Source of the DNA: Elusimicrobiota bacterium
GTDB lineage: Bacteria; Elusimicrobiota; Elusimicrobia; F11
Reading direction: 5' to 3'
DNA: 64,000 nucleotides
Assembly (NCBI GenBank): GCA_046153645.1
Contig: JBJXGI010000042.1
Span: 17,280 to 81,279 of the forward strand
Part shown: one piece after another, positions 10,152 through 64,000 of the stretch
Layout of the letters: each line of letters opens with the position of its first letter
How positions within the stretch are numbered: position 1 is the first letter of the stretch
The notes under the pieces: generated by a model
What the model was told of the DNA's origin: nothing
The model's database searches: none
Seen by the model: the letters and a program-made list of their open reading frames with translations, nothing else
Made by a program: the position numbers and the translations under genes

Positions 10152-11303
10152 ATGACCTATTTAACACTCATTGGTGCATGGCTTGTCTTTTTAATAGTTT
10201 GTGGTGCTGCCCTCGAGTATTTCTGGGGAATAAGGAGCATTGGTTTTCTCAAACACGTTCTCCCAACTGAGTCAAACTACCCACGAATTTCTATTATTAT
10301 TCCTGCTCGCAATGAAGAAACGCATATAGAAGAAGCACTAAAATCTGTTCTTTCATTAGATTATCCAGCCTTAGAAATTATGGTGATTAATGATAGATCA
10401 ACTGATAAAACAGGTGTCATTCTTGAAAAAATGGCCCACCAAAACTCGAGCTTAAAAGTAATCCATATTACCGATCTTCCCCAAAACTGGCTTGGCAAAA
10501 ACCACGCTCTTTTTTTTGGCGCTCAAAAAGCCAACGGTGAATTTCTCCTTTTTGCAGACGCTGACATTATAATGGAACCATCCTTACTTAAAAAAGCCAT
10601 CACCTATGTCCAATCTGAAAAAACGGACCATTTAACTTTGTTTCCAGATGTCAAAATGCCAGGGTTTTGGCTAAATCTTTTTACTGTTGGATTTTCTATT
10701 TTTCTTTGTTTATTTCTTAAACCTTGGCGAGCCAATAACCCGAAAAGCAAAGCCTTTATTGGGATTGGGGCCTTTAACCTCATAAGAAAATCAATCTACG
10801 AAAAGATTGGAACACATGAAAAAATCCGCTTAAGGCCTGATGACGATATTATGTTAGGAAAGTTAGTTAAGAAAAATAATTTTAAGCAAAATGTCTTATT
10901 TGGCACGGACTTACTTTGTGTCGAATGGTACAGCTCTATTAAAGAACTGATCAATGGACTTATGAAAAATTCTTTTTCAGGGGTGAACTACAAATTATGG
11001 CTCCTTACTCTTGGTAGTTTGGCTCACATCATTCTTATTATTTGGCCATTTATCGCTGTTTTTATAACGACAGGGCGGTCTTTAATTTTATACCAACTAA
11101 CCATTTTGTTCTTGGTAATGGTAGGAGCCCAACAAGCCTTATTAAATAAAAAAAATATATTTTACGGATTTGGCTTACCTTTGGCCTCAATTATGTTCTT
11201 ATATATTATATGGAAGGCCGGCTTAAAGACCCTTAGACAAGGCGGCATTTTTTGGAGAGATACTTTTTATTCATTAGATGAACTTAAAAAGAACAATATT
11301 TAA
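10152..11303 (+). CDS. Family 2 glycosyltransferase with C-terminal membrane domain
   Basis: GT-A motifs are present (ISIIIPARNEE, DRSTD, FADAD = DxD) and the product has multiple C-terminal TM helices. Confidence 0.75.
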   Translation: MTYLTLIGAWLVFLIVCGAALEYFWGIRSIGFLKHVLPTESNYPRISIIIPARNEETHIEEALKSVLSLDYPALEIMVINDRSTDKTGVILEKMAHQNSSLKVIHITDLPQNWLGKNHALFFGAQKANGEFLLFADADIIMEPSLLKKAITYVQSEKTDHLTLFPDVKMPGFWLNLFTVGFSIFLCLFLKPWRANNPKSKAFIGIGAFNLIRKSIYEKIGTHEKIRLRPDDDIMLGKLVKKNNFKQNVLFGTDLLCVEWYSSIKELINGLMKNSFSGVNYKLWLLTLGSLAHIILIIWPFIAVFITTGRSLILYQLTILFLVMVGAQQALLNKKNIFYGFGLPLASIMFLYIIWKAGLKTLRQGGIFWRDTFYSLDELKKNNI

Positions 11304-48588: not shown

Positions 48589-50262
48589 GTGAATTTCCCT
48601 AAATTTAAAGATTTATTTTCACTTTGGTTTCCCATGGCAACACCCGCTGCATCTGAAGAGAACGTGGTTGAAGACTTCACTGTTCTCAACGCAGAAACCG
48701 ACCTGTACAATGAAAATTCTCGATTAATAAAATCAAAAAATAACGAACAAAATAACGTATTTCAAAAAATTAGATTTGATAATTTTATACGTCTTTGTAC
48801 GGCATTGCCGGTATTTGTGGTTTCAGTTCTCTTATGGTGGGGTGGGGCTTTAAACCATATTTTCGCTATAACAATTACATTTATCTTGTTTAGTTTTGTT
48901 CAATTTACTGCTTGTTTGTTTTTTCTCCAAACTAAAAAACCCAAAGTATTAGATACATTTTTATGCTCTATGGATTTAGTGGCCATGGGAACGGGTATAC
49001 ACTTGACGGGGGGAATGAATAGCCCTCTTATGTTTATGTTTTTCATTCCATTTATCATTCAAGCCTTCCATCGTAATTGGAAAATGATCATATTTTACGG
49101 AATTGGCGGAATCATCGTTTTAAGTCTCGTAGAACTTTTCTCACTTGAGCCAAAATCATCTTTTCCCATATTAGACTTCACAGCCAGAGTTTTCTTTCAC
49201 GCTCTGACCACAACCATCGCTGCTTTAGGAGTTTATTTGTTAGAAAAAAAAGAAGTGGGGGATGCCATTGGACTATCTCGACTGAGATTGATTAATAGAA
49301 TTACTCAAAGATTAAATCACGTACAAGCCTATAGTGACGTTCTTTTTACCTCCAGAGAAATTTTAGATTTATTGCAATCAGAGTGGGGAAACTCATATTG
49401 GTTTCAATTCCTACTGATTGAAGAAGATGGTTTTAACTTGAAAAACATTTCATCAAAGAAGAACTCTGATTGGGATATCTTAGAACAAGAATCGTATAAA
49501 GTTTTTGTTAATTCATTCGAAAACAAAATACTTTCTATACAGAAATTCGAGGAAACACTAAAAACAGGGGAACATTTTTCCATTTTAGGTTCGTATCAAC
49601 TTTTTTCAATTACTGGGTCTGATAACAAACCACACGGCATTCTTGTTGTTGGTTCCAAAAAAACATCCGCTTTTTCAAGTGAAGACAACAAATTCCTACA
49701 ATTCATTGTGAAATCAATAGGATTAACACTTCAAAGGCTTTATGTTTTTGATGAATTACGAAAAATAACGGAAATGGAAAGTTGTGCCGCGGCAATAAAC
49801 CTAAATTCAAGTCGAAGCATAAACTTAGTTTATAGTTCAATTATTGAAGGGATCCTTTCTGTCATTAACGCAGATCAAGCTTGCCTTATGATGTGGAGCA
49901 ACGAAACTCAAACTCTTACTCCTATAGAAGCAAAAGGCCCTTACGCTCAAAAAGAACTTGAAATTAAATTCCCAATGGGAGAGGGGATTTTAAATCATGT
50001 GTTAAAAACAGGGGAAGTTATTTTCTGCAACGGGGTGATAGAAGATAAAATTTATCAATCTCAAAAAATACCTATGAAATCTTTTATTTGTCTCCCTTTA
50101 TGGAATGTAAGAGGAAAACCCATCGGAGTTATTACAGCTATGAAATTCATTGAAGAGAAAGGATTTTCAAGCACTGAAATTGGCGTGGCTGCCACTTTTG
50201 CCGCTCGTTGCTCCGTTGCGCTCGAAAATGCCATTAACCAACCACAAAAAATGGCCGCTTAA
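48589..50262 (+). CDS. Membrane protein with N-terminal polytopic domain and C-terminal GAF domain(s), no recognisable output domain
   Basis: It has a GTG start with upstream AGGATGAGG, about 6 TM helices in residues 60-215, and a C-terminal GAF-like region (…LSVINADQACLMMWS…GEGILNHV…FICLPLWN…GVITAM). Confidence 0.6.
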   Translation: MNFPKFKDLFSLWFPMATPAASEENVVEDFTVLNAETDLYNENSRLIKSKNNEQNNVFQKIRFDNFIRLCTALPVFVVSVLLWWGGALNHIFAITITFILFSFVQFTACLFFLQTKKPKVLDTFLCSMDLVAMGTGIHLTGGMNSPLMFMFFIPFIIQAFHRNWKMIIFYGIGGIIVLSLVELFSLEPKSSFPILDFTARVFFHALTTTIAALGVYLLEKKEVGDAIGLSRLRLINRITQRLNHVQAYSDVLFTSREILDLLQSEWGNSYWFQFLLIEEDGFNLKNISSKKNSDWDILEQESYKVFVNSFENKILSIQKFEETLKTGEHFSILGSYQLFSITGSDNKPHGILVVGSKKTSAFSSEDNKFLQFIVKSIGLTLQRLYVFDELRKITEMESCAAAINLNSSRSINLVYSSIIEGILSVINADQACLMMWSNETQTLTPIEAKGPYAQKELEIKFPMGEGILNHVLKTGEVIFCNGVIEDKIYQSQKIPMKSFICLPLWNVRGKPIGVITAMKFIEEKGFSSTEIGVAATFAARCSVALENAINQPQKMAA

Positions 50263-51533
50263 TTTTTCTTTTTCTCAGATTTTTTATCTAATTTTTTATC
50301 GGTTTTTTTATCGACAGGTATTGAATCTTCCTTGGGATCGGGTTTCATTTTATATTGAGAAAAAGGTTTTTCAGCGCCAAACGAATTTTCGTTTCCCGAA
50401 GGCAAATAGGCCGCCTTGGTATAACGACAGAGTGGATTCCAAATAAGCCACTCTCCGACACCCTGATCAGCGGATGCTTCAATTTGATCACGAACATGAT
50501 TTGCTGTGTATTTAACTCCTAAACTAAAATCCTGAAGCCAAGGCCGCAGCTGAACTGGTGAATTTTTTAAGACTTTCTTCGTGTCTTTGATACTTCGGTA
50601 AATTGTCTCGTACGGGCTAGAATTTGGATCTTTTAAACCAAATTCTCCAGGGTAATAGTGTGATGGATACATCATGGGTGAAATAATATCCACATGAGAA
50701 ATCATGCGATCCATTTTTTGTCCTATTCCCATATCATCATCATAAGATCCTGTCAGGCCAAAAACATCAATAGAAAAAGGTGTGTTCAGAGCCTTCATTC
50801 TTTTATGTGTTGCTTCTAGGAATTGAGCCAGCGCATCAATAGAGTTTGCTTTTGAATGTGGCTTAGAATAAACACACTGTTTTGTGGGACCATCAGAAGG
50901 AAATCGAATGTAATCAAATTGAATCTCTTGAAACCCGAGTGCGACAGCTTTTTCGGCAATGGCAATATTATAATTCCAAACATTTTTATCATAAGGGTCA
51001 GCCCATGCGGAGCCTTTCCGATCAACCCAAATATCTTTGCGGTACCCTTTTTCAACAGCTTTAGAAATAGGAAGAGAAGATTTAATGGCCCACTCTGGTT
51101 TCCACTTAGCCACTCGATTATCATGAAAAACCGCAATTCTCGCAATACAATAAATTCCTCGCTCTTTTAAAAATTGAAGATATTCTTTGATATCTGGCAT
51201 TGCTTTAACAAAATTCTCTTTACCATCTAATTTCACACCAGGAATATAAACCTCTCCATCTGATTCTTTTACATCAATAACAACTGTGTTAATTTCTGTA
51301 TCGGCGAGGAGTCTTTCAAAACGGGGTCTTAATTTTTTACTTCCTGTAACCCAAGAGGTTAAATGAATTCCTTTTACACAAGGGGGAGGGCCATCAATGG
51401 CATCGCCCCATAAAACAATAGGCGCAGTCGATTTTTGAATTTGGGGAGAGGCTTCCTCTTGAGCATTAGACGAGCATCCAATAACCCCCAAGCTAAAAAG
51501 AGCTAAAAATAGAAAGGCAGAATTTTTTTTCAA
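50259..51533 (-). CDS. Lipoprotein, putative TIM-barrel glycoside-hydrolase-like (GHL10/DUF4015-like) with Lys-rich C-terminal tail
   Basis: It has a lipobox (…GVIGCSS). The central region resembles DUF4015-type putative glycosyl hydrolases, by recall. The C-terminus is KKTDKKLDKKSEKKKN. Confidence 0.4.
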   Translation of the reverse strand: MKKNSAFLFLALFSLGVIGCSSNAQEEASPQIQKSTAPIVLWGDAIDGPPPCVKGIHLTSWVTGSKKLRPRFERLLADTEINTVVIDVKESDGEVYIPGVKLDGKENFVKAMPDIKEYLQFLKERGIYCIARIAVFHDNRVAKWKPEWAIKSSLPISKAVEKGYRKDIWVDRKGSAWADPYDKNVWNYNIAIAEKAVALGFQEIQFDYIRFPSDGPTKQCVYSKPHSKANSIDALAQFLEATHKRMKALNTPFSIDVFGLTGSYDDDMGIGQKMDRMISHVDIISPMMYPSHYYPGEFGLKDPNSSPYETIYRSIKDTKKVLKNSPVQLRPWLQDFSLGVKYTANHVRDQIEASADQGVGEWLIWNPLCRYTKAAYLPSGNENSFGAEKPFSQYKMKPDPKEDSIPVDKKTDKKLDKKSEKKKN

Positions 51534-54148: not shown

Positions 54149-55798
54149 TTATTGATAAACCCATATTTTTTCTGAAGAGCTTTTCAACTTAAACACCAAG
54201 AGGTCCTCTTTTTCAAATATTTTTTCATAACTGGGACTTTGTTCTAATTCACCAATAGACTGGGTTAATTCTTTCAACGTATAAGGAATCGAGTTCCCTT
54301 TTCGATCACAAACAATATATTCCGGGTTGGCCAGATGTTTGATTTGTAACACCCCCATATGATCTCCCACAGGAAATATTTGGACAAAACGGCGAGAATC
54401 AAAATGAGGGAGTAAATTTTGTTGCCCCGCTAGTGAAGCATCGAATGGAATTATTTTTTTTATTTCTTCAAAAGCCAAAATTTTATTTTTATGTGTAAAA
54501 CGGGAAAATTTTGGAGAGCAGTAAACTCCAATAGCCGCAGTAATAAATATCGCCCCTAAACATATTTGACGTTTATTAATAAACCATGGTTTTTGGTTTA
54601 ATTTCATAAATCCAAAAACAGCGCCAACAAATAAAAAAGCTTGCGAAGGCAAGGCGTAAATATCAGCTAAATTGAGTTGAGTTTGAGCTTGTGAAAGAAT
54701 ATGTGGGGCCAAACTTAAAATAACGGGAATAAGAAATAAAGGAGAAAGAAGTGGCAACCCCAATACGGGGAAAATGTAACACAACGACGTAAAATATTTT
54801 TGAGGGTAATAACATAACGCCTGAAATAGGGCACCTGGATTAAAAAACATATTAATAATGATCTCTCGAGTTGTTTTACCAAAAATGGGGTAACGTTCTG
54901 CCATTAATGAAGTTTCTCCCGTTTGAATAAACGTGGGAATAAAAAATTTAAATTGATATATAAAAATTCCCAGCGCGCACAATATTAAACAAAAGCCGAC
55001 CTTTTTCCAGCCTTTTTGAAAAACGAGAAAAATACCAAAACCAGTTAAAACAATTGAAACATCTTCCTTGGCGAAAAGCGCAAATAGCGCAAATAAAAAA
55101 GTGGCCACCTTTTTTCCAGATATCCAAGCCAACAATGCCAAAAAAAGCATCGGGATTTGCCATGAATCAGGATGAAAGTCATTTTGAATATTGTGCGCAA
55201 TGTAAGGTGAAGACGCATAAAGTAAAAACCCAATTAATGAATAGGAAAAAGAACCTGTTAGTTTTTTTATAATTAATCCCAATACCGGAATTCCACTGGC
55301 AATAAATAAAGCCTGAAAAACCAAAAGCACTTCTGCCCCAGGATAAAATTTATAGAAAAAAGAAATGGGCCATAAAATCCAATTGGTATGAATGGCCATA
55401 AAACATTGCTCTAAAAGAGAAGAGTAAAACCAATGCCCATAGGCTGTATTGAAACAAATATTGGAAAAAAACCCCAAATCCAGCGCGTGTGTTTGCAAAG
55501 AGGTGTGAGCGTAAAGTTTATAACTAACAACACCAGAAACATAACAACACCACAGAAGAAAAAACAAAATGACCTGCCTCTGTAAACTTAATTGGTCTAA
55601 ATATTGTCTCAATTGAGAAAAGAAAGTTATCCCGTTTTTAAAAAAAATAACCCATAAACCCACAAGGGCTAGAATAATAATAATGAATGTTTTAAGTGAA
55701 CGAATCGAAAGAGGACTACCGAAAAATTCCGTTTGAATAGAAAAGTGCCAAGGAAAAAGGGCGTTGAAAATACCCAGAAAAATAATAACGAAAATCAT
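54149..55798 (-). CDS. Large polytopic membrane protein (possibly DUF2079 / GT-C-like)
   Basis: The track ORF runs to 55933, but its first 45 codons overlap the tRNA-Ser gene (GFESPPLR is the tRNA translated). The first ATG after the tRNA (55796-55798) gives a 549-aa protein with at least 12 TM helices. Confidence 0.5.
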
Positions 55799-55874
55799 CA
55801 AATAAAAATATTTTTTCAATTGAGAACGCTTCCAGTTTAAATATTGAATTGGGTATAGACCAAGAAATTTGGAA

Positions 55875-55965
55875 CGGAGGGGGGGGGATTCGAACCCCCG
55901 ATATAGCTTTTCAACCATATAGCGGTTTAGCAAACCGCCGCACTAGGCCACTATGCGACCCCTCC
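55875..55965 (-). tRNA. tRNA-Ser (anticodon GCU), class II with long variable arm
   Basis: Minus-strand sequence GGAGGGG-TC-GCAT…GTGC-G-GCGGT-TTGCTAA-ACCGC-(variable arm ATATGG…CTATAT)-C-GGGGG-TTCGAAT-CCCCC-CCCCTCC-G. It has a 7-bp acceptor, a 5-bp anticodon stem, anticodon GCT, and a T-loop TTCGAAT. CCA is not encoded. Confidence 0.8.
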
Positions 55966-56019
55966 AAAAGAAATCATTATAAACTATTTTCTTAAGCTAT
56001 GATAAAAAGAGATTATTCT

Positions 56020-56313
56020 TCAGTCTCTTAATCCTTCTTGCATATAATCAACCACGAGATTAATGATTTGTTTAACGGTCTGACTACAAGATTTGAAAGA
56101 TATCCGTTCAAGAACTTCAAAACCATAATTTCGAAAAATATCACTGATAAGCGCGTGAATAAAAGACTGGGTTGCAGTGTCTACCTTATCGAAATCAAGG
56201 ACAACATCTTCATTTTTGTTAAGAGCAGGAACAATATCATTTAAGCGAATATTTCTTGCCACATCTTTGTTTTCGGCGAAGGCACCCGCCTTATCAAAAA
56301 TGGAAATGTTCAT
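56020..56313 (-). CDS. Small STAS-like (DUF4325-type) protein
   Basis: A 97-aa product. Its size and pattern (…VVLDFDKVDTATQSFIHALISDIF…) resemble the STAS-like DUF4325 family, by recall. It overlaps the upstream ATPase gene by 4 nt. Confidence 0.5.
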   Translation of the reverse strand: MNISIFDKAGAFAENKDVARNIRLNDIVPALNKNEDVVLDFDKVDTATQSFIHALISDIFRNYGFEVLERISFKSCSQTVKQIINLVVDYMQEGLRD

Positions 56314-57269
56314 ATAAATTTGGGTTTATGAAAACGTGCTTCTTTACGTTCACGTATCGCAGTGCTGTAGGTTTTTCGGATCGCTTCTAAAAGAAGTGAA
56401 AATTCTGCTGTCTGATCAAGCGTCATATCAATTCCAACAAGGGTGCCAAACCAATGAGGCATGTTTTCTCCTATTGAATGTCGATCTTTAAACGGATCGG
56501 CGTGCAACGAAGATCTCTTACTTGTTTTTTTAAGCAATTTATAAAAACCGCTCCCACTATAGACGACAAAATAATCTCTGTTCACATGGGCTATAGATTT
56601 AATAAAAAAAAGACCCGCTCCTGCATTTTGTTCGGTCCCGCCTTCATTTTTTGTTTTTCCTGTGATTCCCGGCATTAACGCCATACGAATCCCATCTATA
56701 TCCGTTTTGGCCAAATGGGACTGATTGATTGAAGCTTTGATTCCCATTCCAGTGTCCGCAATTCCAATTCGAATCACATTACTCTTTGGATAATATTGGG
56801 CACAAAGAAGAGCTCCATATAGAGATTCTGAATGTTCAAGCACATTTCTCACCAATTCACTGACTATATAACCGATTGTTTTGGCCTGCTCAGCTTCCAC
56901 ATGGAGAAGTGGAATCATTTCAGTAATAAACTTGCTTAATTCTTCGGAGGTTTTAATTTGAGTAAGTGGAATAAATCGTCCGGCTGGTTCATGTTCAGTG
57001 ATGCGAATATCCGTTGGAACATTTAAAATTTTAAACAGTCCCATCCGAACCAAGTAATGTTTTGAACGCGCTTCTAATTTTTCACAATGGAAATTTTCCG
57101 GTTTAATGGTCATGCCAAGCGCCGCAATCATAGAGAGCACAAAAGGGTGAACGGAAATCCATTTACTATTGGCCGTCATTTCTAATATTTCAGGTGTTGA
57201 TGGATCAAAGCTTCGCAAAAAAGGATCTATATTTCCTAAAAACGCACTATTGGGTAAGTGTATTCTCAT
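56310..57269 (-). CDS. GHKL/HATPase_c-type ATPase (RsbW/SpoIIAB anti-sigma-kinase-like) with uncharacterised N-terminal domain
   Basis: Bergerat-fold motifs appear in order: N-box ELVRNVLEHS, G1 IADTGMGI, G2 NAGAGLFF. The preferred start is the ATG at 57267-57269 (MRIHLP…). The track start is an upstream TTG at 57338, whose extra 23 codons are encoded by promoter/operator-like DNA. Confidence 0.6.
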   Translation of the reverse strand: MRIHLPNSAFLGNIDPFLRSFDPSTPEILEMTANSKWISVHPFVLSMIAALGMTIKPENFHCEKLEARSKHYLVRMGLFKILNVPTDIRITEHEPAGRFIPLTQIKTSEELSKFITEMIPLLHVEAEQAKTIGYIVSELVRNVLEHSESLYGALLCAQYYPKSNVIRIGIADTGMGIKASINQSHLAKTDIDGIRMALMPGITGKTKNEGGTEQNAGAGLFFIKSIAHVNRDYFVVYSGSGFYKLLKKTSKRSSLHADPFKDRHSIGENMPHWFGTLVGIDMTLDQTAEFSLLLEAIRKTYSTAIRERKEARFHKPKFI

Positions 57270-57275
57270 ATCAGA

Positions 57276-57326
57276 ATTATACCGGGAATCCCGGTATTTT
57301 GTCAATATTCCGGGATTCCCGGTATA
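57276..57326 (-). promoter_or_regulatory. Consensus sigma70-type promoter with two GC-rich palindromic operator sites (putative leaderless transcript of the GHKL-STAS dyad)
   Basis: Minus strand: TTGACA (57305-57300), an 18-nt spacer, TATAAT (57281-57276), then 6 nt, then ATG. Site A, TACCGGGA(T)TCCCGGTA, fills the spacer and overlaps the -10. Site B, the reverse-orientation copy ATACCGGGAATCCCGGAATA, abuts the -35 upstream. The half-site is CCGGGA. Confidence 0.5.
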
Positions 57327-57358
57327 TTGACCCTCCAAACTTCACTGAGTGTTGTGAG

Positions 57359-58282
57359 TTATTGAGGACTTAAATATTGAGAAGGAATAACTTCTCTGGA
57401 ATCCATTGAAATAGGCCGCCATAACAACTGAACTCTAGAGGGGCCACCATAATTCACGAAATCTATTCGAATGGGAAATTTTCCTTGTTTAAAATCGTTT
57501 AAACTAACCACAATGGGTTCACGCCAATTAAAATTATTATCAACAATCAGTTTATCATCAATCCAAACTTTAATTCCATCGTCTGCCACGCCAATAATCT
57601 CATATTTTCCTGAAGACGGAAACGTAATCCACCCCTTCCACCGAGCAGAAAAAATACTTAAGTCGCCGAAGTTTTCAATAGGATAGGCATTTCCCCAATT
57701 GAAATCAACAGCTAAATCTTTCCGGGAATAAATTAAATCTTTGAACTCACTCCCTCTAAAGTACTCGCATATAAGGCCGCGTTTTTCATTTAATTTATTT
57801 TGCCTTATCTGCCATATTCCAATTCCTATAAATAATACGAAAGCAAACAAAGAAATAAATTTCCAATAAGGATAAACAAAACGATAAAAACCATTTTTAA
57901 TAAAAGATAAAAACCGGTAATAAATTGAAAGCTGTGGGTAAACGCTATAAATACTTTTCTCAATGAGATCTTCCGCTTTTTTAAGCATCTTTAAAAAAAT
58001 ATCGACCTGTTCAACATGAGCATTTTCATCATGCCCATTATTGGCCAGAGAATAACTTTCAATTTGATTTAAAATGGTCATTTCTGATAAAAACTTTTCA
58101 CTCTGAGGAAGGTGTTTAGCAAGATCTTTCATTGAATTTAAAATAAATGGCTTGGAAAATTCAATCAAATCAAAATTCTCTGAATCAATCAGATTTTTTA
58201 TCCCTTCGATATTGGATTTAAGTTTGTTAAATTTCTTAGAAATTTCTTCAATACTCATTTTTCTCTCCATTCGATAACCCAA
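57359..58282 (-). CDS. Membrane-anchored PA14-domain protein (cytoplasmic N-domain, 1 TM, periplasmic PA14), paralog 1
   Basis: The TM helix is FISLFAFVLFIGIGIW. The C-terminus is PA14-like (…FSARWKGWITFPSSGKYEIIGVADDGIKVWIDDKLIVDNNFNW…RVQLLW). The track start is TTG; ATG alternatives lie 4 or 8 codons downstream. Confidence 0.6.
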   Translation of the reverse strand: MGYRMERKMSIEEISKKFNKLKSNIEGIKNLIDSENFDLIEFSKPFILNSMKDLAKHLPQSEKFLSEMTILNQIESYSLANNGHDENAHVEQVDIFLKMLKKAEDLIEKSIYSVYPQLSIYYRFLSFIKNGFYRFVYPYWKFISLFAFVLFIGIGIWQIRQNKLNEKRGLICEYFRGSEFKDLIYSRKDLAVDFNWGNAYPIENFGDLSIFSARWKGWITFPSSGKYEIIGVADDGIKVWIDDKLIVDNNFNWREPIVVSLNDFKQGKFPIRIDFVNYGGPSRVQLLWRPISMDSREVIPSQYLSPQ

Positions 58283-58319: not shown

Positions 58320-59576
58320 CTAGGCCTTTATTAAATCCAGCATAAATTTAATTTGTGACGCACTACCAACAATCATTAAAAGTATGATTGATATCAATAA
58401 AAAATTCTTTTTTTCTCTAAAAAAACTCTGTATTGCTTGCGCGTATAACAAAGCCCATCCTAACCATAACCAAGAAAGGTATCGAAAATCCATAGAACAA
58501 GAATAAGGGCTCCGAGCAAGATAAAAATAAGTAATGGGCACCACACCAACTAAAACTATTCCAAATAATTGGGTTGTTTTATTTAAGTTAATTTTAGAAA
58601 CACTCATCAGGCACACCAAAAATCTAACAACAAAAACAACCCAGGCCGTGTTTATTAAGAAAAAGGGATAATCGTGTTGGCCAAAAAGAGAACTGGAAAA
58701 ACGATACAAAAAGTAATTTGTACATTTTGAATAATAACCGACAAAATTGAGCGCATATGGATTATCAAATTGGCCACCAATGAGACCAGGAATTGAAAAA
58801 ATGACTTTAAATGGAGATTCTTGGAGCCTTAATTCACCTCCTAAAATATCCCAATTAACAGGGAATAATTTACCCGTATAATAATAGTTGTGACCAATAA
58901 TCCAGGGGAGAAATAGGGTCGTGGCACTGCCTAAGATAAAAAAATAAGAAAACGCGGTGTTCCAAGGAATCTTCTTTAAAACAGCTGACACTAAAACAAT
59001 TGAGCTCGAAATCATCATACACATAACAATATTTGATTTGGTATAGAGAGCCGCGGTTGTAACAAGGCCCAGCAAAACCAAAATGACTTTCTTTTTAGAA
59101 TGAGAAAAATAAATATAACTTAAAAAGAAAAATAACATGCTTAATAATGAAAAAAGTGAATCGTTATTATAAGTAGTAAACATATACAGAAAAGCGGGTG
59201 CCGTCGAAATAAACAATAAAACCACCATTGCTATCCAAACCTTTATTTTTATAAGCCTCAAAAATAAAATAATAATAATCAAACAAAGAAGCCCGTAGAC
59301 AACAGAAAGTTTTCGAATATTTTCTACATGATGACCCCATTTTTTAATAACAAAGCTGTTGATTAAATAATAAAGCGGTGGATGATAGGTTTGCCAGGCT
59401 TCATCAGGAGAGGGCAGTCTATCTTGATAGGCAATAATGTTTGTGTATTCTACGTGCCCTTCAAAATCATACGTTCTTGCATCATCAGGAGAATATCGGA
59501 TATACATCAAGGCAAAAAGGACCCAAAAAACAAGAAATAAACCAAGTAAAAAAAAATTAGAAATTTTTTTGGTCAA
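58320..59576 (-). CDS. GT-C superfamily polytopic glycosyltransferase (ArnT/PMT-like)
   Basis: The first extracytoplasmic loop after TM1 has acidic motifs (SPDDARTYDFEGH) and …TYHPPLYYLI…, which resembles the KPPL.YW motif of ArnT/GT83. It has about 10 TM helices and overlaps the UGM gene by 4 nt. Confidence 0.5.
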   Translation of the reverse strand: MTKKISNFFLLGLFLVFWVLFALMYIRYSPDDARTYDFEGHVEYTNIIAYQDRLPSPDEAWQTYHPPLYYLINSFVIKKWGHHVENIRKLSVVYGLLCLIIIILFLRLIKIKVWIAMVVLLFISTAPAFLYMFTTYNNDSLFSLLSMLFFFLSYIYFSHSKKKVILVLLGLVTTAALYTKSNIVMCMMISSSIVLVSAVLKKIPWNTAFSYFFILGSATTLFLPWIIGHNYYYTGKLFPVNWDILGGELRLQESPFKVIFSIPGLIGGQFDNPYALNFVGYYSKCTNYFLYRFSSSLFGQHDYPFFLINTAWVVFVVRFLVCLMSVSKINLNKTTQLFGIVLVGVVPITYFYLARSPYSCSMDFRYLSWLWLGWALLYAQAIQSFFREKKNFLLISIILLMIVGSASQIKFMLDLIKA

Positions 59577-61087
59577 GTTTTAGGCCTAATTGATTTTGGA
59601 ACATCTCTTAAACCAGACGACTGATTAGAATTCTGTTCAGCTTCTTCTATATATTCCGCGTCTTGATTGACATTCCAAGGGTCAAAAGAGTCAGACCCGG
59701 AAATAATATTTTGGACAGTGAGCATGGCTGTCATCATGGCATGATCTTGATTATTATATTTATGCATCCCATTTCTTCCTACGAAATGTAAATGGGGATA
59801 ATCACTATCAACTGTTTTTCGAATTAAATCAACACAATCCTTATAAACATCGTCATAAACGGGGTAGGCTTTGGGTTGTCTGATAACGAATCCATCTTTA
59901 ATGTCAGCTTCATGGGCTAATCCTAATTTTACCAACTCTTGTTGCGCTAATTTAACCAGGTCTTTATCAGGCATTTCCCATAAACCGTCACCTTTAAAGC
60001 AAAAATATTCTAACGAATAACACGTCATGTTAGGATCAGGCACCATTTCCGGTGACCACGACTTAAAATTCTGAATTCTGCCCACCTGAACACTAGAATC
60101 GTGAATATAAATCCATTGATCTGGGAGGTTCACTTTATCTTTCAAAATAACGCCGACACAAATAAAATCGCGGTAATGTAATTTACTAGCAGCGCTCATA
60201 ACGTCTTTATTGGGAACAGGTGAGAGCGCATGAATAACTTCACCCAAAGGAGCGGATGAAATAACGTGCTCCGCATTTATTTCTTTAACATCTTGTTCTT
60301 TAGTAATCCTCACTGTCCATAAAGAATTAGTTTTATCGAATTGAAAATGTGACGCTTTATAACCCATATAAACCAGGCCGCCCATCTTTTGAATCTTTTC
60401 AGAACACACGTCCCACATCATCCCCGGGCCTTTTCGAGGATAACGAAACTCGTCTATAAGAGTTTTAATTTTTGTTTTCGATTTTTTAAAAGGGGATAAA
60501 GTTCTAAACGAATTTATTATGGCGCTGCCCAACGACAATTTCCCAATCCGTTGAGCGGCCCAATCAGCGGAAATATCTTTACACTTCATTCCCCACACTT
60601 TTTCCGTATAAGTTTTGAAGAATATCTGAAAAAGTCTTTTACCAAATTGATTACTCACCCAATCTTCTAGATTGGTTGCATTTTTTACGGGAAACAATTG
60701 CGCCCATAAAAAAGATGAGATACATAACATGGTTTCAATGGGGCCCAAATTAAAAAAAGCTTCAAAGGGACGCAACGGGTAGGAGTAAAACTTCCCTTTA
60801 TAAAAAATACGAGAAACTCTTTTACGAACAATAAGGTCTTTCTCTAAAAGCTCCGTCCACAAATCTTCCACCGCTTTGGATTTAGAATAAAACCGGTGCC
60901 CGCCAATATCACTGTAATACCCTTTATAATCAATTGTTTTAGAAATACCACCGACGTATTTTTCATCGGTTTCTACCACAATTACGAGTTTTCCTTGTTT
61001 TGCCAATAAATAAGCTGCGGTAAGGCCGGCAGGGCCGGCTCCAATAACGACCACTGATGTTTTTAAATTATTGTTGTTTTCCACCAA
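59573..61087 (-). CDS. UDP-galactopyranose mutase-like flavoenzyme, long (eukaryote-type) form
   Basis: It has an FAD Rossmann motif (VVIGAGPAGLTAAY…VETDEKYVGG…DIGGHRF). Internal (…FFKTYTEKVWGM…) and C-terminal (…FVGRNGMHKYNNQDHAMMTAMLTVQNIISG) motifs parallel Glf/UGM, especially the 500-aa fungal/kinetoplastid type. Confidence 0.6.
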   Translation of the reverse strand: MVENNNNLKTSVVVIGAGPAGLTAAYLLAKQGKLVIVVETDEKYVGGISKTIDYKGYYSDIGGHRFYSKSKAVEDLWTELLEKDLIVRKRVSRIFYKGKFYSYPLRPFEAFFNLGPIETMLCISSFLWAQLFPVKNATNLEDWVSNQFGKRLFQIFFKTYTEKVWGMKCKDISADWAAQRIGKLSLGSAIINSFRTLSPFKKSKTKIKTLIDEFRYPRKGPGMMWDVCSEKIQKMGGLVYMGYKASHFQFDKTNSLWTVRITKEQDVKEINAEHVISSAPLGEVIHALSPVPNKDVMSAASKLHYRDFICVGVILKDKVNLPDQWIYIHDSSVQVGRIQNFKSWSPEMVPDPNMTCYSLEYFCFKGDGLWEMPDKDLVKLAQQELVKLGLAHEADIKDGFVIRQPKAYPVYDDVYKDCVDLIRKTVDSDYPHLHFVGRNGMHKYNNQDHAMMTAMLTVQNIISGSDSFDPWNVNQDAEYIEEAEQNSNQSSGLRDVPKSIRPKT

Positions 61088-61161
61088 TAAGCTCCAAATC
61101 TACAGACCTTTAAATTTTTAATATATACTTGTGCACACAAACCCTTAACCTTTAATAGCAA

Positions 61162-62073
61162 ATGGAAGAAACTAATAATCTCATAAAAAAAGCGACTCTG
61201 GTTCTAGATTCCGCTTTTGCAATGCTACATCAAGATCCATCGACAGCAAAACTACTTATTTTTAGAACTATCATAATATTAAAAAGAACCTACGAGGGGA
61301 TAAGAATTGGAACAAATGATGATCAGCAATATGAAATCCCAAACACATCAATTATCTATGAAGACTATGTACAAGAATTATTTAAAACTTCCCTTATAGA
61401 TTTAGAAAAAATTTCCATTTCAGACAGCACACTGAAGATAACGTTAATTCAAACTAAAGATGAGCTAGAAAAACTCAAAAAAGAATTGGGTTTAAATTCT
61501 TTAAAAAAATATAAAAATAAAATACTAAAAATTTTTCTTAGTAATTTTTTTCTGAAAAAAATATTACCAACATTAGTTTTTTCTTTCACTTCTTTATTTG
61601 TTATAAAAATAGTTTATCATCACGTCATTGATAAAAAACATGGACTAACTACAGAATATTTCTCGGACCATAATTTATTATCACGAACGTTCGTAAACCA
61701 CAATCGGGAAATCGATTTTGACTGGGGATATTCTGGTCCTCTGCCTAATGGTCAAGCAGATTTTTTCTCAATTAGATGGGAAAGTTATTTATTCGTCCCA
61801 GAAGACAATGAATATAGTTTTATAACACTGTCCGATGACGGGGTTCGGCTTTGGATTAATGATTTTTTACTTATTGATGACTGGATAAATCATCCTCCTA
61901 TTTATAATGAAAATAAAATACGCCTCCCAAAGGGATTCCATAAATTTAAGCTAGAATATTATGAGTATGATCTTACAGCAGGTGTAAGAGTCTTTTGGAG
62001 ACCGCTAACGAGTAAAAAGAAAGAAATTATCAAACAAAAATTCTTCTATCTCGAAAATCCTATCAAAGGTTAA
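61162..62073 (+). CDS. Membrane-anchored PA14-domain protein, paralog 2
   Basis: Same architecture as 57359-58282. The post-TM region (…EYFSDHNLLSRTFVNHNREIDFDWGY…FFSIRWESYLFVPEDNEYSFITLSDDGVRLWINDFLLIDDW…VRVFWRP) is clearly homologous to paralog 1. Confidence 0.6.
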   Translation: MEETNNLIKKATLVLDSAFAMLHQDPSTAKLLIFRTIIILKRTYEGIRIGTNDDQQYEIPNTSIIYEDYVQELFKTSLIDLEKISISDSTLKITLIQTKDELEKLKKELGLNSLKKYKNKILKIFLSNFFLKKILPTLVFSFTSLFVIKIVYHHVIDKKHGLTTEYFSDHNLLSRTFVNHNREIDFDWGYSGPLPNGQADFFSIRWESYLFVPEDNEYSFITLSDDGVRLWINDFLLIDDWINHPPIYNENKIRLPKGFHKFKLEYYEYDLTAGVRVFWRPLTSKKKEIIKQKFFYLENPIKG

Positions 62074-62187
62074 ACTTCAATCAATCACCTACAACGCATT
62101 AAATTTCAGATTTCTTACCTCCACAAGTCATTATTACAGTTATTTCCCATCAGTTTTATCACGATTGGAGCCATTCTTAGTTTAGCA

Positions 62188-63495
62188 ATGCCAGCTGGTA
62201 CCAACTTTGTTTGGGATGAAAATGGTCATTGGTCTACGGCCGTGGCTCAGATGAAAAGTTTTCTTAGTGGAATATCTTACCCCGCTGAGTTTTCCTCGAT
62301 TTATGGCAATTTAGTTGCTTATCCTGGCTTTGTTCTAAGCCACCTGGTTATTTGGTTAATCCAACTCATGGATATATCTGTTCCTATCTATGGGACATTT
62401 CATCTATATCTAGCACGACTTCTTTCAGGTTTTGGTATTGCAATTTGCCTACATCGGTTTTGTACTTTAGCAGAAAGTGACCATCAACCAACCTGGGGAA
62501 TTGTAAGTATTCTCAGTCTATTTCTATCACCTTTATTCCTACAACGCTCGTTTGGCTTAAGCACCGATATTATGACTCACGCGCTGTCTATATTAGCTGT
62601 ATCTGTTATTTTTTTTTGGGACCGACTTAATTTTTTTGATGTATTTCTATTTTTTTTCTTTGGATTTGGAACTGCATTAGCGAAACCAAATGTGTTATTA
62701 CTCTTTTTGAGCGTTTTGGTTTATTGTCATTTCATTTATAAGCAGGAAGAAATTATATCGACCCATAAACTATTTTTTTTCAATCTAACAAAAGCTCAGC
62801 TTTTTTTCTGGGCAGGAACTCTCATTTTTTTATTATTAGGTATTCAACATAGTATTTATTTTTTTTCGCATCAAAACAATGTCGCTGTTATTGCTGTAAA
62901 ACCGAATATTTCATCTGCCAGACAAATCGATTTTATTCTTAGAGAACCCTTATTTACTCTGAATATTTTTTGGAGGGAATTTATTGAAAATTTCTCAACC
63001 CACTATTTTTGGGGGCAGTCAATAGAAAAAAAATACCCTGCTGTATATTCATTATTTGCAGTAAATCTATGGCAATCAATTTTCACAACTGCCATGATCT
63101 TTGAATTTAGTATGATTTTTTTTCACATTTCTTTACGAAAAATATATTTCAATTTTCACAATATATTTATAGGACTGCTTTTTCCTTTTGTTGGTATTGT
63201 TCTTTATGCTCTTAGCATAATGTTAACAGCTTATGTGGGCTGGACACCTGTGGGATATCATTTTGTAACGGGGATTCAGTTCCGATATTTTATTCCCATT
63301 TTTATTATTGGGCTCAGTGTCTTATTTCATTCCTTATCTAAATTGACAAAAAATCCAAATTCTTTGGGAGAAGAAATCTATAATGCATCAATTTCAAACC
63401 ATTTAATCTCACTAACAATCAAAGGATTTTGTTTTGTAATTTTGGTTTGTTATGGTCTTTTCTTTTATTTAGGCGTTATTGGTAAACCCGTTTGA
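62188..63495 (+). CDS. Polytopic membrane protein, candidate GT-C-like glycosyltransferase (N-terminus probably extends upstream)
   Basis: It has at least 10 TM helices and an acidic motif FVWDENGHW right after the track ATG. The in-frame upstream 38 codons encode a basic + hydrophobic segment (…KFQISYLHKSLLQLFPISFITIGAILSLA) that would form TM1 before the DE loop. No ATG/GTG/TTG is available there. Confidence 0.45.
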   Translation: MPAGTNFVWDENGHWSTAVAQMKSFLSGISYPAEFSSIYGNLVAYPGFVLSHLVIWLIQLMDISVPIYGTFHLYLARLLSGFGIAICLHRFCTLAESDHQPTWGIVSILSLFLSPLFLQRSFGLSTDIMTHALSILAVSVIFFWDRLNFFDVFLFFFFGFGTALAKPNVLLLFLSVLVYCHFIYKQEEIISTHKLFFFNLTKAQLFFWAGTLIFLLLGIQHSIYFFSHQNNVAVIAVKPNISSARQIDFILREPLFTLNIFWREFIENFSTHYFWGQSIEKKYPAVYSLFAVNLWQSIFTTAMIFEFSMIFFHISLRKIYFNFHNIFIGLLFPFVGIVLYALSIMLTAYVGWTPVGYHFVTGIQFRYFIPIFIIGLSVLFHSLSKLTKNPNSLGEEIYNASISNHLISLTIKGFCFVILVCYGLFFYLGVIGKPV

Positions 63496-64000
63496 GATTC
63501 ATTCTCAACGATAGCCAGAAGATTACTAATTGCTCCTAAAAAATGAAATGTTTTGAATCTAATTTTCCGGTTTCGAAATACTTGTCGATTTATTTCCACA
63601 AATTCTTTTAGACTTAGCAAATCTAGATGAGATTCGTCAGCCCATCTACTCATTCCAACACATCGGAGAAATAATCTATGAATTTTTTTGGGAAGCCAAT
63701 GAAAAAAAGGAAGCATCGTATGGAACTCCACCCAGTGATATCGATGGGGCGTAATAATAGCTATATATTTTTGAGATGATCTATCTAAAAGCTCTAAATG
63801 TTCTTTTTTTTGAATCTCATTTCCAACATGTTCAATAACTGCAGAAGATATAACTAAATCAAATCTTTCGGAACTGGAAATTCCATTTAAAAATCTATCA
63901 AATGGAATCAAATTAAAACCTAATTTCGAGGCCATTTGTAAACAATTCTCAGGAGATGTCACAGAAACATGACATCCTAAAAGTTTGGCCTGTCTTGAGA
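63465..64000 (-). CDS. Class I SAM-dependent methyltransferase (5' end outside window)
   Basis: The frame stays open to the window edge. Motif I (…AKLLGCHVS…) is encoded near 63970-64000, and downstream motifs follow (…FDLVISSAVIEHV…). It is convergent with the preceding membrane protein, overlapping it by about 30 nt. Confidence 0.55.
   Translation of the reverse strand, partial: SRQAKLLGCHVSVTSPENCLQMASKLGFNLIPFDRFLNGISSSERFDLVISSAVIEHVGNEIQKKEHLELLDRSSQKYIAIITPHRYHWVEFHTMLPFFHWLPKKIHRLFLRCVGMSRWADESHLDLLSLKEFVEINRQVFRNRKIRFKTFHFLGAISNLLAIVENESQTGLPITPK

Follow-up and report, generated by a model that had tools for sequence, protein, structure and literature searches.

What does a flavoprotein with the hallmarks of the eukaryotic UDP-galactopyranose mutase (UGM) do in an uncultured Elusimicrobiota bacterium, where its gene overlaps that of a polytopic membrane protein? 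In fungi, kinetoplastids and nematodes UGM has been validated as a drug target, and the eukaryotic form of the enzyme has hitherto been regarded as distinct from the bacterial form, Glf. The locus lies in a 64,000-nt stretch of DNA (the window), and a check of open reading frames and translations located all of the frames and quoted motifs at the positions that a preliminary description of this DNA had given them (Table 1).

Table 1. Features of the locus, with positions in the window
Feature	Description	Position	Strand	Size or evidence
G	DUF2079 polytopic membrane protein	54149..55798	-	Pfam DUF2079 E 6.4e-56
tRNA-Ser		55874-55966		
F	Single-pass membrane protein, C-terminal PA14 (glycan-binding-type) domain	57359..58282	-	Pfam PA14 E 5.8e-18
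A	Compact GT-C-fold membrane glycosyltransferase candidate, PMT_2/GT39/GT83-like	58320..59576	-	418 aa
B	FAD flavoprotein, PRK07208.1-1 family, predicted long-form (eukaryote-like) UGM homologue	59573..61087	-	504 aa
C	Single-pass PA14 protein	61162..62073	+	Pfam PA14 E 1.6e-23
D	DUF2142 polytopic membrane protein, possibly GT-C-related	62074..63495 (annotated start 62188)	+	435 aa as annotated
E	Possible class I SAM methyltransferase, C-terminal 177 codons	63465..64000, runs past window	-	open frame

The genes are closely packed. The start codon of A overlaps the stop codon of B, with 4 bp shared on the same strand, and F follows 37 bp downstream of A, also on the same strand. B and C are divergently transcribed across a 74-bp intergenic gap. 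The presence of PA14 proteins in the same window as the putative mutase, which had been pointed out before, is confirmed by the Pfam matches of C and F, and these two proteins are paralogues (E about 1e-22). G is set apart from the cluster by the tRNA gene and two unrelated genes, and no similarity could be detected between G and either the A family or the chains in the PDB. The description of the cluster as "accessory" receives mild support from base composition: the GC content of C, D and E is 0.30-0.33, against 0.380±0.026 for other genes, but that of B (0.381) is average.

The three regions that had been taken as hallmarks of UGM are indeed present in B. A GxGxxG Rossmann motif for FAD binding (VIGAGPAGL; NAD_binding_8, E 1.1e-11) is accompanied by DIGGH (60-64), FFKTYTEKVWG (156-166) and FVGRNGMHKYNNQDH...QNIISG (435-464). 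The protein matches the full NCBIfam model PRK07208.1-1 with 734.6 bits (cutoff 451), a family that carries the NCBI name "hypothetical protein" and nothing more, and on which we found no paper in the literature searched. Its closest solved relatives are the eukaryotic UGMs (E 3e-19 with the single sequence, 5e-26 with the family profile), and the similarity extends beyond the FAD-binding fold: it covers about 350 residues and, in addition, the C-terminal motif. The best matches in both sequence and fold are the enzymes of Aspergillus fumigatus (AfUGM, PDB 3UTE/3UKH) and Trypanosoma cruzi (TcUGM, PDB 4DSG). Long-form UGMs have 470-520 aa and contain insertions that Glf, at roughly 370 aa, lacks; B fits this length and aligns end to end with eukaryotic UGMs of 473-513 aa. 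Bacterial Glf (E. coli K-12, PDB 1I8T; also Klebsiella, Deinococcus and Mycobacterium) is homologous too, in that hhalign aligns B with all 367 aa of the E. coli protein (probability 96.4%, E 1.3e-9), relative to which B is about 135 residues longer through three insertion blocks. The curated Glf models, PF03275 and TIGR00031, were derived from short bacterial Glf, and B falls below the thresholds of both (17.6 vs 26.3 bits and 45.9 vs 303.75, respectively). The matches to eukaryotic UGMs support the assignment of B as a probable long-form, eukaryote-like UGM homologue, as had been proposed from its motifs and length.

The active site can be compared residue by residue, using the 20 positions tabulated for AfUGM (PMC3322874), which were transferred to B via sequence, profile and hhalign alignments. 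About 18 of the 20 are kept, including most of the eukaryote-specific ones (AfUGM→B: H63→H64, F66→Y67, R91→R90, F158→F156, M159→F157, Y162→Y160, N163→T161, W167→W165, R182→R180, W315→W325, Y317→Y327, R327→R337, E373→E360, Y419→Y408, R447→R438, Y453→Y444, N457→N446, Q458→Q447), and nearly all of the mapped residues are invariant in an alignment of the PRK07208.1-1 family. The histidine loop over the flavin (G62, G63 and H64, the last corresponding to AfUGM His63 and E. coli His56) is invariant, as are R180 and R337, which align to the essential AfUGM R182 and R327 (KpUGM R174 and R280); in the hhalign alignment, E. coli R170 falls two columns away from R180, beside a gap. The uridine/UDP pocket, formed in AfUGM by Y104, F158, Y162, N/T163, W167, Y419 and Y453, is represented by Y103, F156, Y160, T161, W165, Y408 and Y444, all of them invariant. 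The sole unconserved positions are those of AfUGM P206 and N207 on the mobile flap, a region of low confidence in the model of B.

B thus shares with the eukaryotic enzymes the GGH loop, both catalytic arginines and the uridine pocket. It also matches them at R91, F66, W315, Y317, N457 and Q458 (R90, Y/F67, W325, Y327, N446 and Q447 in B), which makes six of nine eukaryote-specific positions eukaryote-like; residue 67 is Y in B and F in most family members. Two of the other three, T161 and F157, are in the bacterial state, where AfUGM has N163 and M159, and the third, N207, is unconserved. Since N207 contacts the galactose, the sugar handled by B may differ. The overall identity to eukaryotic UGMs is only about 20%, and B differs from them further in an extra C-terminal tail (residues 465-504), which is conserved in its family and lies outside the UGM core. 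With Glf, B shares a nearly identical YTEKxWG motif, the arginines and the tyrosines, but several of its active-site positions follow the eukaryotic pattern.

The same residues bear on whether B is a mutase at all. Database names ("protoporphyrinogen oxidase", which JGI gives to many B homologues, or "NAD(P)/FAD-dependent oxidoreductase" in JGI/NCBI) would make it a redox flavoenzyme of the amine-oxidase/protoporphyrinogen-oxidase (PPO) type, with membrane-protein neighbors unconnected to any ring contraction, and the Pfam Amino_oxidase model does match B above its cutoff (E 4.4e-13). With the PPO model TIGR00562, however, B reaches 55.4 (cutoff 97.85). The PPO profile match (E 1.7e-8) is limited to the FAD motif at the N-terminus; that to UGM (5e-26), by contrast, extends through the substrate domains. 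Furthermore, the GGH histidine, both arginines, the YTxKxW uridine motif, Y408, Y444 and N446 are UGM-specific and invariant in the B family. The preliminary description had named affinity to such oxidases as the result that would overturn the mutase assignment; UGMs are the best matches and the active-site residues are retained, and we consider a redox enzyme very unlikely.

The membrane protein encoded by the overlapping gene, A, carries the motifs YDFEGH, with Asp37 just after the first transmembrane (TM) helix, and WQTYHPPLYY (61-70). An AlphaFold model (pLDDT 93.3) supports a GT-C fold, as each of the 41 highest-ranking Foldseek matches in the PDB is a GT-C enzyme (probability 1.00), with ALG3, Pmt4, PglB, STT3, ArnT, AftA, AftB, PimE, AftD and Emb among the fold matches. 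D37, the GT-C-type acidic residue of the first extracytoplasmic loop, is invariant, H41 is nearly so, and P66, P67 and Y70 are conserved. A itself scores below the cutoff of Pfam PMT_2 (PF13231; 22.8 vs 26.1 bits), and many homologues at 30-35% identity bear PF13231, PF02366 or PF09913. The second polytopic neighbor, D, has the motif VWDENGHW and matches Pfam DUF2142 (37.5 bits, cutoff 30.1). As annotated it lacks its first TM helix, and a conserved TM1 is encoded in frame at 62074-62187 with no canonical start codon. Across 117 distant homologues, P32, D40, E41 and H44 are nearly invariant, and a PDExxHW loop after TM1 is conserved. A sequence search of the PDB with D gave zero matches, and hhalign relates D to the A family over 114 columns (probability 85%, E 6e-6). 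Of the two GT-C-like neighbors that had been proposed, A therefore has the predicted fold, and D is a DUF2142 protein with what appears to be a distant link to the A family.

The PRK07208.1-1 family is far from confined to this organism. More than 8000 flavoproteins match at about 60% identity, and at least 598 stretches of species-representative genomes carry the family, in Verrucomicrobiota, Planctomycetota, Acidobacteriota, Alphaproteobacteria, Bacteroidota, Myxococcota and other phyla. The earlier view that such an enzyme is unexpected in a Gram-negative context can therefore be set aside. We report here that these genes are enriched beside polytopic membrane proteins: in 68 species-representative loci, proteins with at least 7 TM helices account for 22% of the immediate neighbors of the flavoprotein gene and 6% of genes at least four positions away (Fisher p 2.6e-7), and several of these neighbors are PMT_2 proteins. 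In 26 of 80 loci a GtrA-like gene lies immediately downstream (0-45 bp), GtrA being the commonest Pfam family among the operon mates, and GT2 genes are rare (6 of the 80 loci, three of these within 3 kb).

Do B and its neighbors at this locus act together? A-type proteins adjoin a 43%-identical B homologue in one other locus (L083) and B-family genes in two more (L154 and L107); in L089 and L096 they lie close to a distant UGM-like protein. Of 89 loci encoding A-like proteins, just 6 contain a UGM-like gene, and the association of A with B is thus recurrent and not obligatory. Alternatively, the furanose made by B might be used by Leloir transferases of the cytoplasm whose genes lie elsewhere, with unrelated envelope roles for A, D, G and the PA14 proteins. 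The low count fits such a separation, as does the failure to find any homologue of C, D, E, F or G in the 80 flavoprotein loci, whose gene content also changes between phyla (in Verrucomicrobiota, for example, glycine dehydrogenase and glycogen synthase). Against it stand the 4-bp overlap of B and A, the recurrence of their pairing in unrelated contigs (L020 as well as L083, L154 and L107) and the significant enrichment of polytopic proteins beside the family across phyla, and we regard separate roles as unlikely.

GT-C enzymes require a lipid-phosphate donor, and this raises the question of how a furanose would reach them. The closest parallel is three-component periplasmic glycosylation, in which a GtrA flippase, a GtrB GT2 synthase and a GtrC/GT-C transferase cooperate (compare ArnC/ArnT), and to which the pentofuranose systems of Kelly et al. 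belong (summarized in PMC11194591). Like those systems, the locus has a GT-C transferase candidate beside a putative sugar-activating enzyme, and some relatives in other phyla have GtrA directly 3' of the flavoprotein gene; this linkage to GtrA and GT-C-like genes, along with the bacterial host, also distinguishes the B family from eukaryotic UGMs. The locus differs in that both GtrA and GT2 are absent at 54-64 kb, and a UGM-like mutase is the sugar-modifying enzyme in no described system of this type. The single GT2 gene of the window (10152-11303) is 48 kb from the cluster, and no small GT2 gene occurs near A in the window, although such genes adjoin A homologues in L081, L085 and L089.

Because GT2 genes are mostly missing from the family loci, the mutase might itself load the lipid carrier. 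B would then isomerize a polyprenyl-phosphate pyranose, or hand a flavin-bound furanose to polyprenyl phosphate, and so replace the GtrB-type GT2 beside GtrA and GT-C. The frequency of GtrA and scarcity of GT2 among family loci, together with the enrichment of polytopic partners, are in keeping with this idea, and the conserved C-terminal tail could be a docking element. A precedent of sorts is mycobacterial DprE1, a FAD enzyme that acts on a lipid-linked sugar and is found beside the GtrA protein Rv3789. However, the invariant uridine-binding residues (Y103, F156, Y160, T161 and W165) point to a UDP-sugar substrate, B has no hydrophobic segment, GtrA is absent from the window, and the pathway could draw on a GT2 enzyme encoded elsewhere in the genome. 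We know of no biochemical precedent for such a reaction, and judge it distinctly improbable.

The resemblance to galactan or arabinan assembly, which the preliminary description had drawn, proves to be loose. Mycobacterial arabinogalactan synthesis (Glf, GlfT1/2, DprE1/E2, a UbiA-type synthase, the GtrA protein Rv3789 and Aft/Emb) likewise combines a furanose-forming flavoenzyme with GT-C transferases, and AftA, AftB, AftD and Emb are among the fold matches of A. Nonetheless, A is a minimal GT-C protein that lacks the large periplasmic domains of Emb and AftD; no homologue of GlfT, DprE1/E2, a UbiA-type synthase or a phosphoribosyl-transferase was found among the 49 ORFs scanned in the window, and the visible cluster contains no GtrA. 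Classical glf genes are found in clusters for O-antigen or galactan, accompanied by genes for Leloir Galf-transferases such as WbbI; no such transferase gene occurs at the B locus.

On balance we lean, by a small measure, toward B being a UDP-hexopyranose/furanose mutase that feeds periplasmic glycosylation by GT-C enzymes. B would be a cytoplasmic, FAD-dependent nucleotide-sugar mutase of the UGM superfamily, most likely interconverting UDP-galactopyranose and UDP-galactofuranose or a closely related UDP-sugar. By the standard UGM chemistry, N5 of the reduced flavin would attack C1 and displace UDP, the ring would open and contract on a flavin-iminium adduct, and UDP would then re-attack. Translational coupling of B to A, suggested by the overlap of their genes, would tie the mutase to a compact GT-C-fold transferase, with D and the membrane-anchored, lectin-type PA14 proteins C and F flanking the pair. 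We infer that the furanose would be placed on a polyprenyl phosphate carrier, the loaded carrier flipped across the membrane, and the sugar transferred in the periplasm by A and/or D to a glycan of the envelope, which C and F may bind. The literature searched yielded no report of a lipid-linked Galf donor.

The partial protein E may modify the same glycan. The expectation of a SAM methyltransferase running off the window was right as to the frame, which is open to the edge at position 64000, and its identity as a methyltransferase is suggested by weak matches of this C-terminal fragment (Methyltransf_12, E 0.082; UbiG, E 0.014). SAM-binding motif I would fall outside the window, a PDB search with the fragment gave nothing below E 0.18, and its motif FDLVISSAVIEHV aligns to the counterpart in a Methyltransf_23 protein of L089.

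A eukaryote-type active site is thus borne by a very large bacterial family without a functional name, and the family could be the bacterial source or the sister group of eukaryotic UGMs. If its members are mutases, this would provide a functional annotation for thousands of genes and a concrete candidate for the origin of the eukaryotic enzyme, and furanoses would be expected in cell envelopes across many Gram-negative phyla (soil Verrucomicrobiota and Acidobacteriota, methylotrophs and sphingomonads among them). It is a speculative prospect, and one that we hold to be unlikely, that the family as a whole marks an undescribed and widespread bacterial furanosylation pathway, in which a eukaryote-type enzyme resembling UGM would act with a GtrA-like protein and a GT-C transferase to furnish periplasmic glycans with a furanose by way of a lipid-linked furanose donor. 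The recurrent pairing of the flavoprotein with GtrA and GT-C-like proteins, without GT2, raises the question of whether a lipid-linked galactofuranose donor exists and how it would be made.

The flavoprotein B is matched from end to end by the NCBIfam family model PRK07208.1-1 (734.6 bits), under the NCBI name 'hypothetical protein'. Searches of the PDB with B matched the UDP-galactopyranose mutases (UGMs) of Aspergillus fumigatus (AfUGM; E 3e-19 with the single sequence, 5e-26 with the family profile) and Trypanosoma cruzi (TcUGM; 6e-15 and 1e-21), as well as the E. coli enzyme Glf (2.8e-11 and 3.5e-12). When the B family was aligned by hhalign with the Glf encoded in the rfb cluster of E. 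coli K-12, the alignment covered the full Glf length with a probability of 96.4%. The family profile also matched L-amino-acid oxidase (E 9e-11) and protoporphyrinogen oxidase (PPO; E 1.7e-8), in both cases over the N-terminal FAD motif only.

The placement of B relied on profile E-values together with diagnostic residues, in comparison with E. coli Glf and aligned AfUGM fragments. A table of 20 AfUGM active-site residues and their bacterial equivalents was provided by van Straaten et al. (PMC3322874), and these residues were transferred onto B by way of the single-sequence, family-profile and hhalign alignments. Conserved counterparts were found in B for 18 of the 20, nearly all of them invariant in a 20-sequence family alignment. 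They include H64, the histidine of the flavin loop; R180 and R337, the two essential arginines; Y103, F156, Y160, T161 and W165, which form the uridine pocket; and Y408, R438, Y444 and N446. Eukaryotic and bacterial UGMs differ at nine positions, of which B has the eukaryotic state at six (R90, Y/F67, W325, Y327, N446 and Q447) and the bacterial state at two (T161 and F157); the ninth, the AfUGM flap residue N207, which contacts the galactose 4-OH, is not conserved. It is the active-site residues that decide the identity of B, which is a long-form UGM homologue, as the preliminary description had proposed; B did not group with the amine oxidases or PPO, nor did it lack UGM residues. The assignment of B as a PPO or amine oxidase was rejected, given that those matches reach no further than the FAD motif and that the UGM residues are present. 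In its diagnostic residues B agrees with the UGM superfamily, and it would work like a UGM, but it fails curated models of the bacterial Glf and, unlike the eukaryotic UGMs, is a bacterial protein; it is best filed as a putative bacterial long-form variant of UGM.

The C-terminal tail of the family (B residues 465-504, window 59573-59695) is predicted to be disordered, with pLDDT below 50, and contains the invariant residues W471, V473, N474, D476, A477, E478, Y479, E481, R494 and P497. The alignments of B to E. coli Glf and AfUGM stop before this tail, which could be a docking motif.

The preliminary description had considered such an enzyme unexpected in a Gram-negative context, and this was wrong, since the family occurs in many Gram-negative phyla. 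A protein search with B returned at least 8000 matches, those listed being about 58-62% identical to B and named 'NAD(P)/FAD-dependent oxidoreductase' or 'protoporphyrinogen oxidase' in their source databases. A scan of one genome per species confirmed at least 598 relatives, from Verrucomicrobiota, Planctomycetota (including Kuenenia), Acidobacteriota, Gemmatimonadota, Armatimonadota, Myxococcota and Bacteroidota. Many others belong to Alphaproteobacteria, with cultured Methylobacterium, Methylosinus, Beijerinckia, Sphingomonas and Sphingopyxis among them. No paper describing the family turned up in literature searches that covered PRK07208, DUF2142, GtrA with a flavoprotein, and lipid-linked Galf.

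Genes of the cluster and other features of the window
Feature	Position	Strand	Description
Fusion ORF	26661-29477	-	transaldolase and phosphoglucose isomerase domains
GAF-domain gene	48589-50262		membrane protein
DUF4015 gene	50259-51533	-	lipoprotein-like
G	54149-55798	-	DUF2079, E 6e-56
tRNA-Ser	55874-55966	-	
I	56020-56313	-	DUF4325, STAS-like, 97 aa
H	56310-57338	-	HATPase-like, 342 aa
F	57359-58282	-	one transmembrane helix and PA14
A	58320-59576	-	polytopic membrane protein
B	59573-61087	-	flavoprotein
C	61162-62073	+	one transmembrane helix and PA14
D	62188-63495	+	DUF2142
E	63465 to beyond 64000	-	partial gene

Every sequence motif quoted in the preliminary description was found at its position. 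Proteins A, B and D match NCBI entries from an uncultured Elusimicrobiota genome at 100% identity (locus tag ACKVQC_03865 for A). On the minus strand, genes B, A, F, H and I are closely packed, with a 4-bp overlap of B and A and gaps of 37 bp between A and F and 20 bp between F and H. A 74-bp gap separates B from the divergently transcribed C and D. The products of C and F are paralogous membrane-anchored PA14 proteins. The GC content of C, D and E is 0.30-0.33, compared with 0.380±0.026 in other genes; it is likewise on the low side in A, F and G, and average in B (0.381). This composition mildly supports the picture of a conserved core gene with accessory flanking genes. The remainder of the window is housekeeping in character (amino-acid metabolism, ribosomal protein L13, a branched-chain amino-acid ABC transporter, succinate dehydrogenase and PBP1). 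A transaldolase domain (E 3e-80) and a phosphoglucose isomerase domain are fused in a single ORF of 938 aa. About 3 kb from the cluster, a gene for a DUF4015 protein, a putative glycoside hydrolase (E 6e-101), overlaps the membrane GAF-domain gene tail to tail by 4 bp; a link of the DUF4015 protein to envelope glycan turnover is possible.

Genes I and H overlap each other, and both resemble parts of the PADLOC DrmA model, I at positions 320-390 (E 4.9e-5) and H at positions 32-248 (E 3.2e-16). They may be regulators of the cluster, a defence-related remnant, or neither. The pair lies 53 bp upstream of the tRNA-Ser gene and 20 bp downstream of the PA14 gene F, on the same strand as F; given this proximity to F, a separate tRNA-linked island is only one possible reading of the pair.

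The membrane protein A scored 22.8 against PMT_2, below the threshold of 26.1. Matches to PMT_2, PMT or DUF2142 are frequent among its roughly 40 homologues (26-35% identity), some of which are named GT39. A very confident AlphaFold model of A (pLDDT 93.3, pTM 0.93) was compared with the PDB, and the best 41 matches were all GT-C enzymes, among them ALG3, Pmt4, Pmt1/2, PglB, STT3, AglB, ArnT and AftA, together with ALG9/12, PimE, AftD, EmbA/B, AftB and DPY19. The proposal that A is a GT-C protein is borne out by this predicted structure and by an invariant aspartate, D37, in the first periplasmic loop. Protein D is above the DUF2142 threshold; a word-indexed search returned only D itself, and an exhaustive search found distant relatives (117 representatives, at most 32% identity, best E 1e-26) that share a TM1-PDExxHW N-terminus. 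The D and A families align by hhalign with a probability of 85% (E 6e-6). PDB sequence searches with the A family, D and G gave no match. All D homologues have TM1 ahead of PDExxHW, and in D itself TM1 is encoded in frame 5' of the annotated ATG, at 62074-62187 (+), in a stretch that contains no ATG, GTG or TTG; either D starts at a non-canonical codon (ATT 62098 or ATC 62080) or the fault lies in the sequence or its annotation. A Cys-containing loop of about 45 residues found in the homologues is missing from D.

G is a solid DUF2079 protein with no profile similarity to the A family, and no test tied it to the cluster or to GT-C proteins. Its longest ORF (54149-55933) overlaps the tRNA-Ser gene on the same strand, so the true start must lie further downstream, for example at 55798, the start used in the preliminary description. 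The partial gene E had been read as a SAM methyltransferase; a motif of the FDLVISSAVIEHV type, known from class I methyltransferases, is indeed present, but the profile scores of E are marginal.

Gene neighbourhoods in other genomes also associate the flavoprotein with polytopic membrane proteins. Among 68 species-representative loci, genes encoding at least seven transmembrane helices make up 22% of the immediate neighbours versus 6% of genes at least four positions away (odds ratio 4.4, Fisher p 2.6e-7, for loci that are not phylogenetically independent). Such a gene lies within two positions of the flavoprotein in 39 of the 68, and several of these neighbours match PMT_2 (loci L019, L023, L030 and L043). 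The species-representative scan yielded a set of 80 loci, which does not include the window's own genome. In 26 of them the next gene after the flavoprotein, 0-45 bp away on the same strand, is GtrA-like, and GT2 genes occur in just six of the 80. In one locus, L066, the GtrA-like match falls inside an ORF of about 818 codons that also contains the 759-aa polytopic partner, which is read as a fusion of the two. Eight verrucomicrobial loci (L004, L006, L007, L008, L011, L015, L021 and L025) have a conserved protein of 430-520 aa and 7-9 helices directly upstream of the flavoprotein, with a faint match to PIG-V mannosyltransferase (E 0.004); six of the eight have glycine dehydrogenase on the downstream side, and several have glycogen synthase farther upstream. 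The alphaproteobacterial loci (L027-L080, e.g. L045:10001-13862) have a conserved trio of flavoprotein, GtrA-like protein (about 140 aa) and a protein of 600-770 aa with 11-14 helices, which has no Pfam match and carries an invariant DxDD..R..QVRD..GQ.WFD loop. This last partner is only a GT-C candidate, because its match to the archaeal oligosaccharyltransferase AglB is weak (E 0.005) and its family has no profile similarity to that of A (probability 1.5%).

Seen from A, the pairing with a UGM-like protein is recurrent rather than fixed, since a UGM-like gene is present in only 6 of 89 loci with A-like genes. In L083 the A homologue is next to, and divergent from, a 43%-identical flavoprotein; in L154 and L107 the A-like genes adjoin members of the B family; in L020 an A homologue and the flavoprotein are about 850 bp apart; and in L089/L090 and L096 the UGM-like protein near the A-like genes is a more distant one (24% identity, E 1e-22). 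Other A homologues adjoin small GT2 genes, nucleotidyltransferases and GHMP kinases. The closest A homologue (35% identity) lies within a 12-gene sugar cluster (L089:275-13204) that includes a nucleotidyltransferase, a GHMP kinase, a Methyltransf_23 protein, a small GT2, an SDR, a GFO/IDH oxidoreductase, the distant UGM-like flavoprotein (432 aa), an epimerase, a second PMT-like protein and another GT2. This cluster may be a fuller version of what the window cluster belongs to.

Alongside the observed homology, fold, active-site conservation and synteny, we infer an enzyme activity, a sugar, a lipid intermediate, an acceptor and accessory roles. B would use the standard covalent-flavin mechanism to produce a UDP-furanose, which is most likely UDP-Galf; polyprenyl phosphate would carry the furanose to the periplasmic face; A and/or D would move it onto an envelope glycan; and the two PA14 proteins may bind that glycan. 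The weak point of this mechanism is the missing lipid-loading enzyme: the visible cluster of the window contains neither a GT2 nor a GtrA gene, and the literature searches found no report of a lipid-linked Galf donor. This gap, together with the pairing of flavoprotein and GtrA without GT2 in other phyla, leaves room for the mutase itself to work at the lipid carrier. A substrate that is purely lipid is disfavoured by the invariant uridine pocket.

The window cluster is similar to periplasmic glycosylation systems of the GtrABC/ArnT type, and loosely similar to mycobacterial arabinogalactan assembly, but the defining components of both are absent. The comparison with galactan/arabinan-type assembly in the preliminary description therefore holds only as a loose resemblance; more generally, what it observed was confirmed, and its interpretation is supported in part. 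The locus itself is an ordinary example of a family that is very common, and that family, an unannotated eukaryote-type UGM-like enzyme with GtrA and GT-C partners, merits follow-up.
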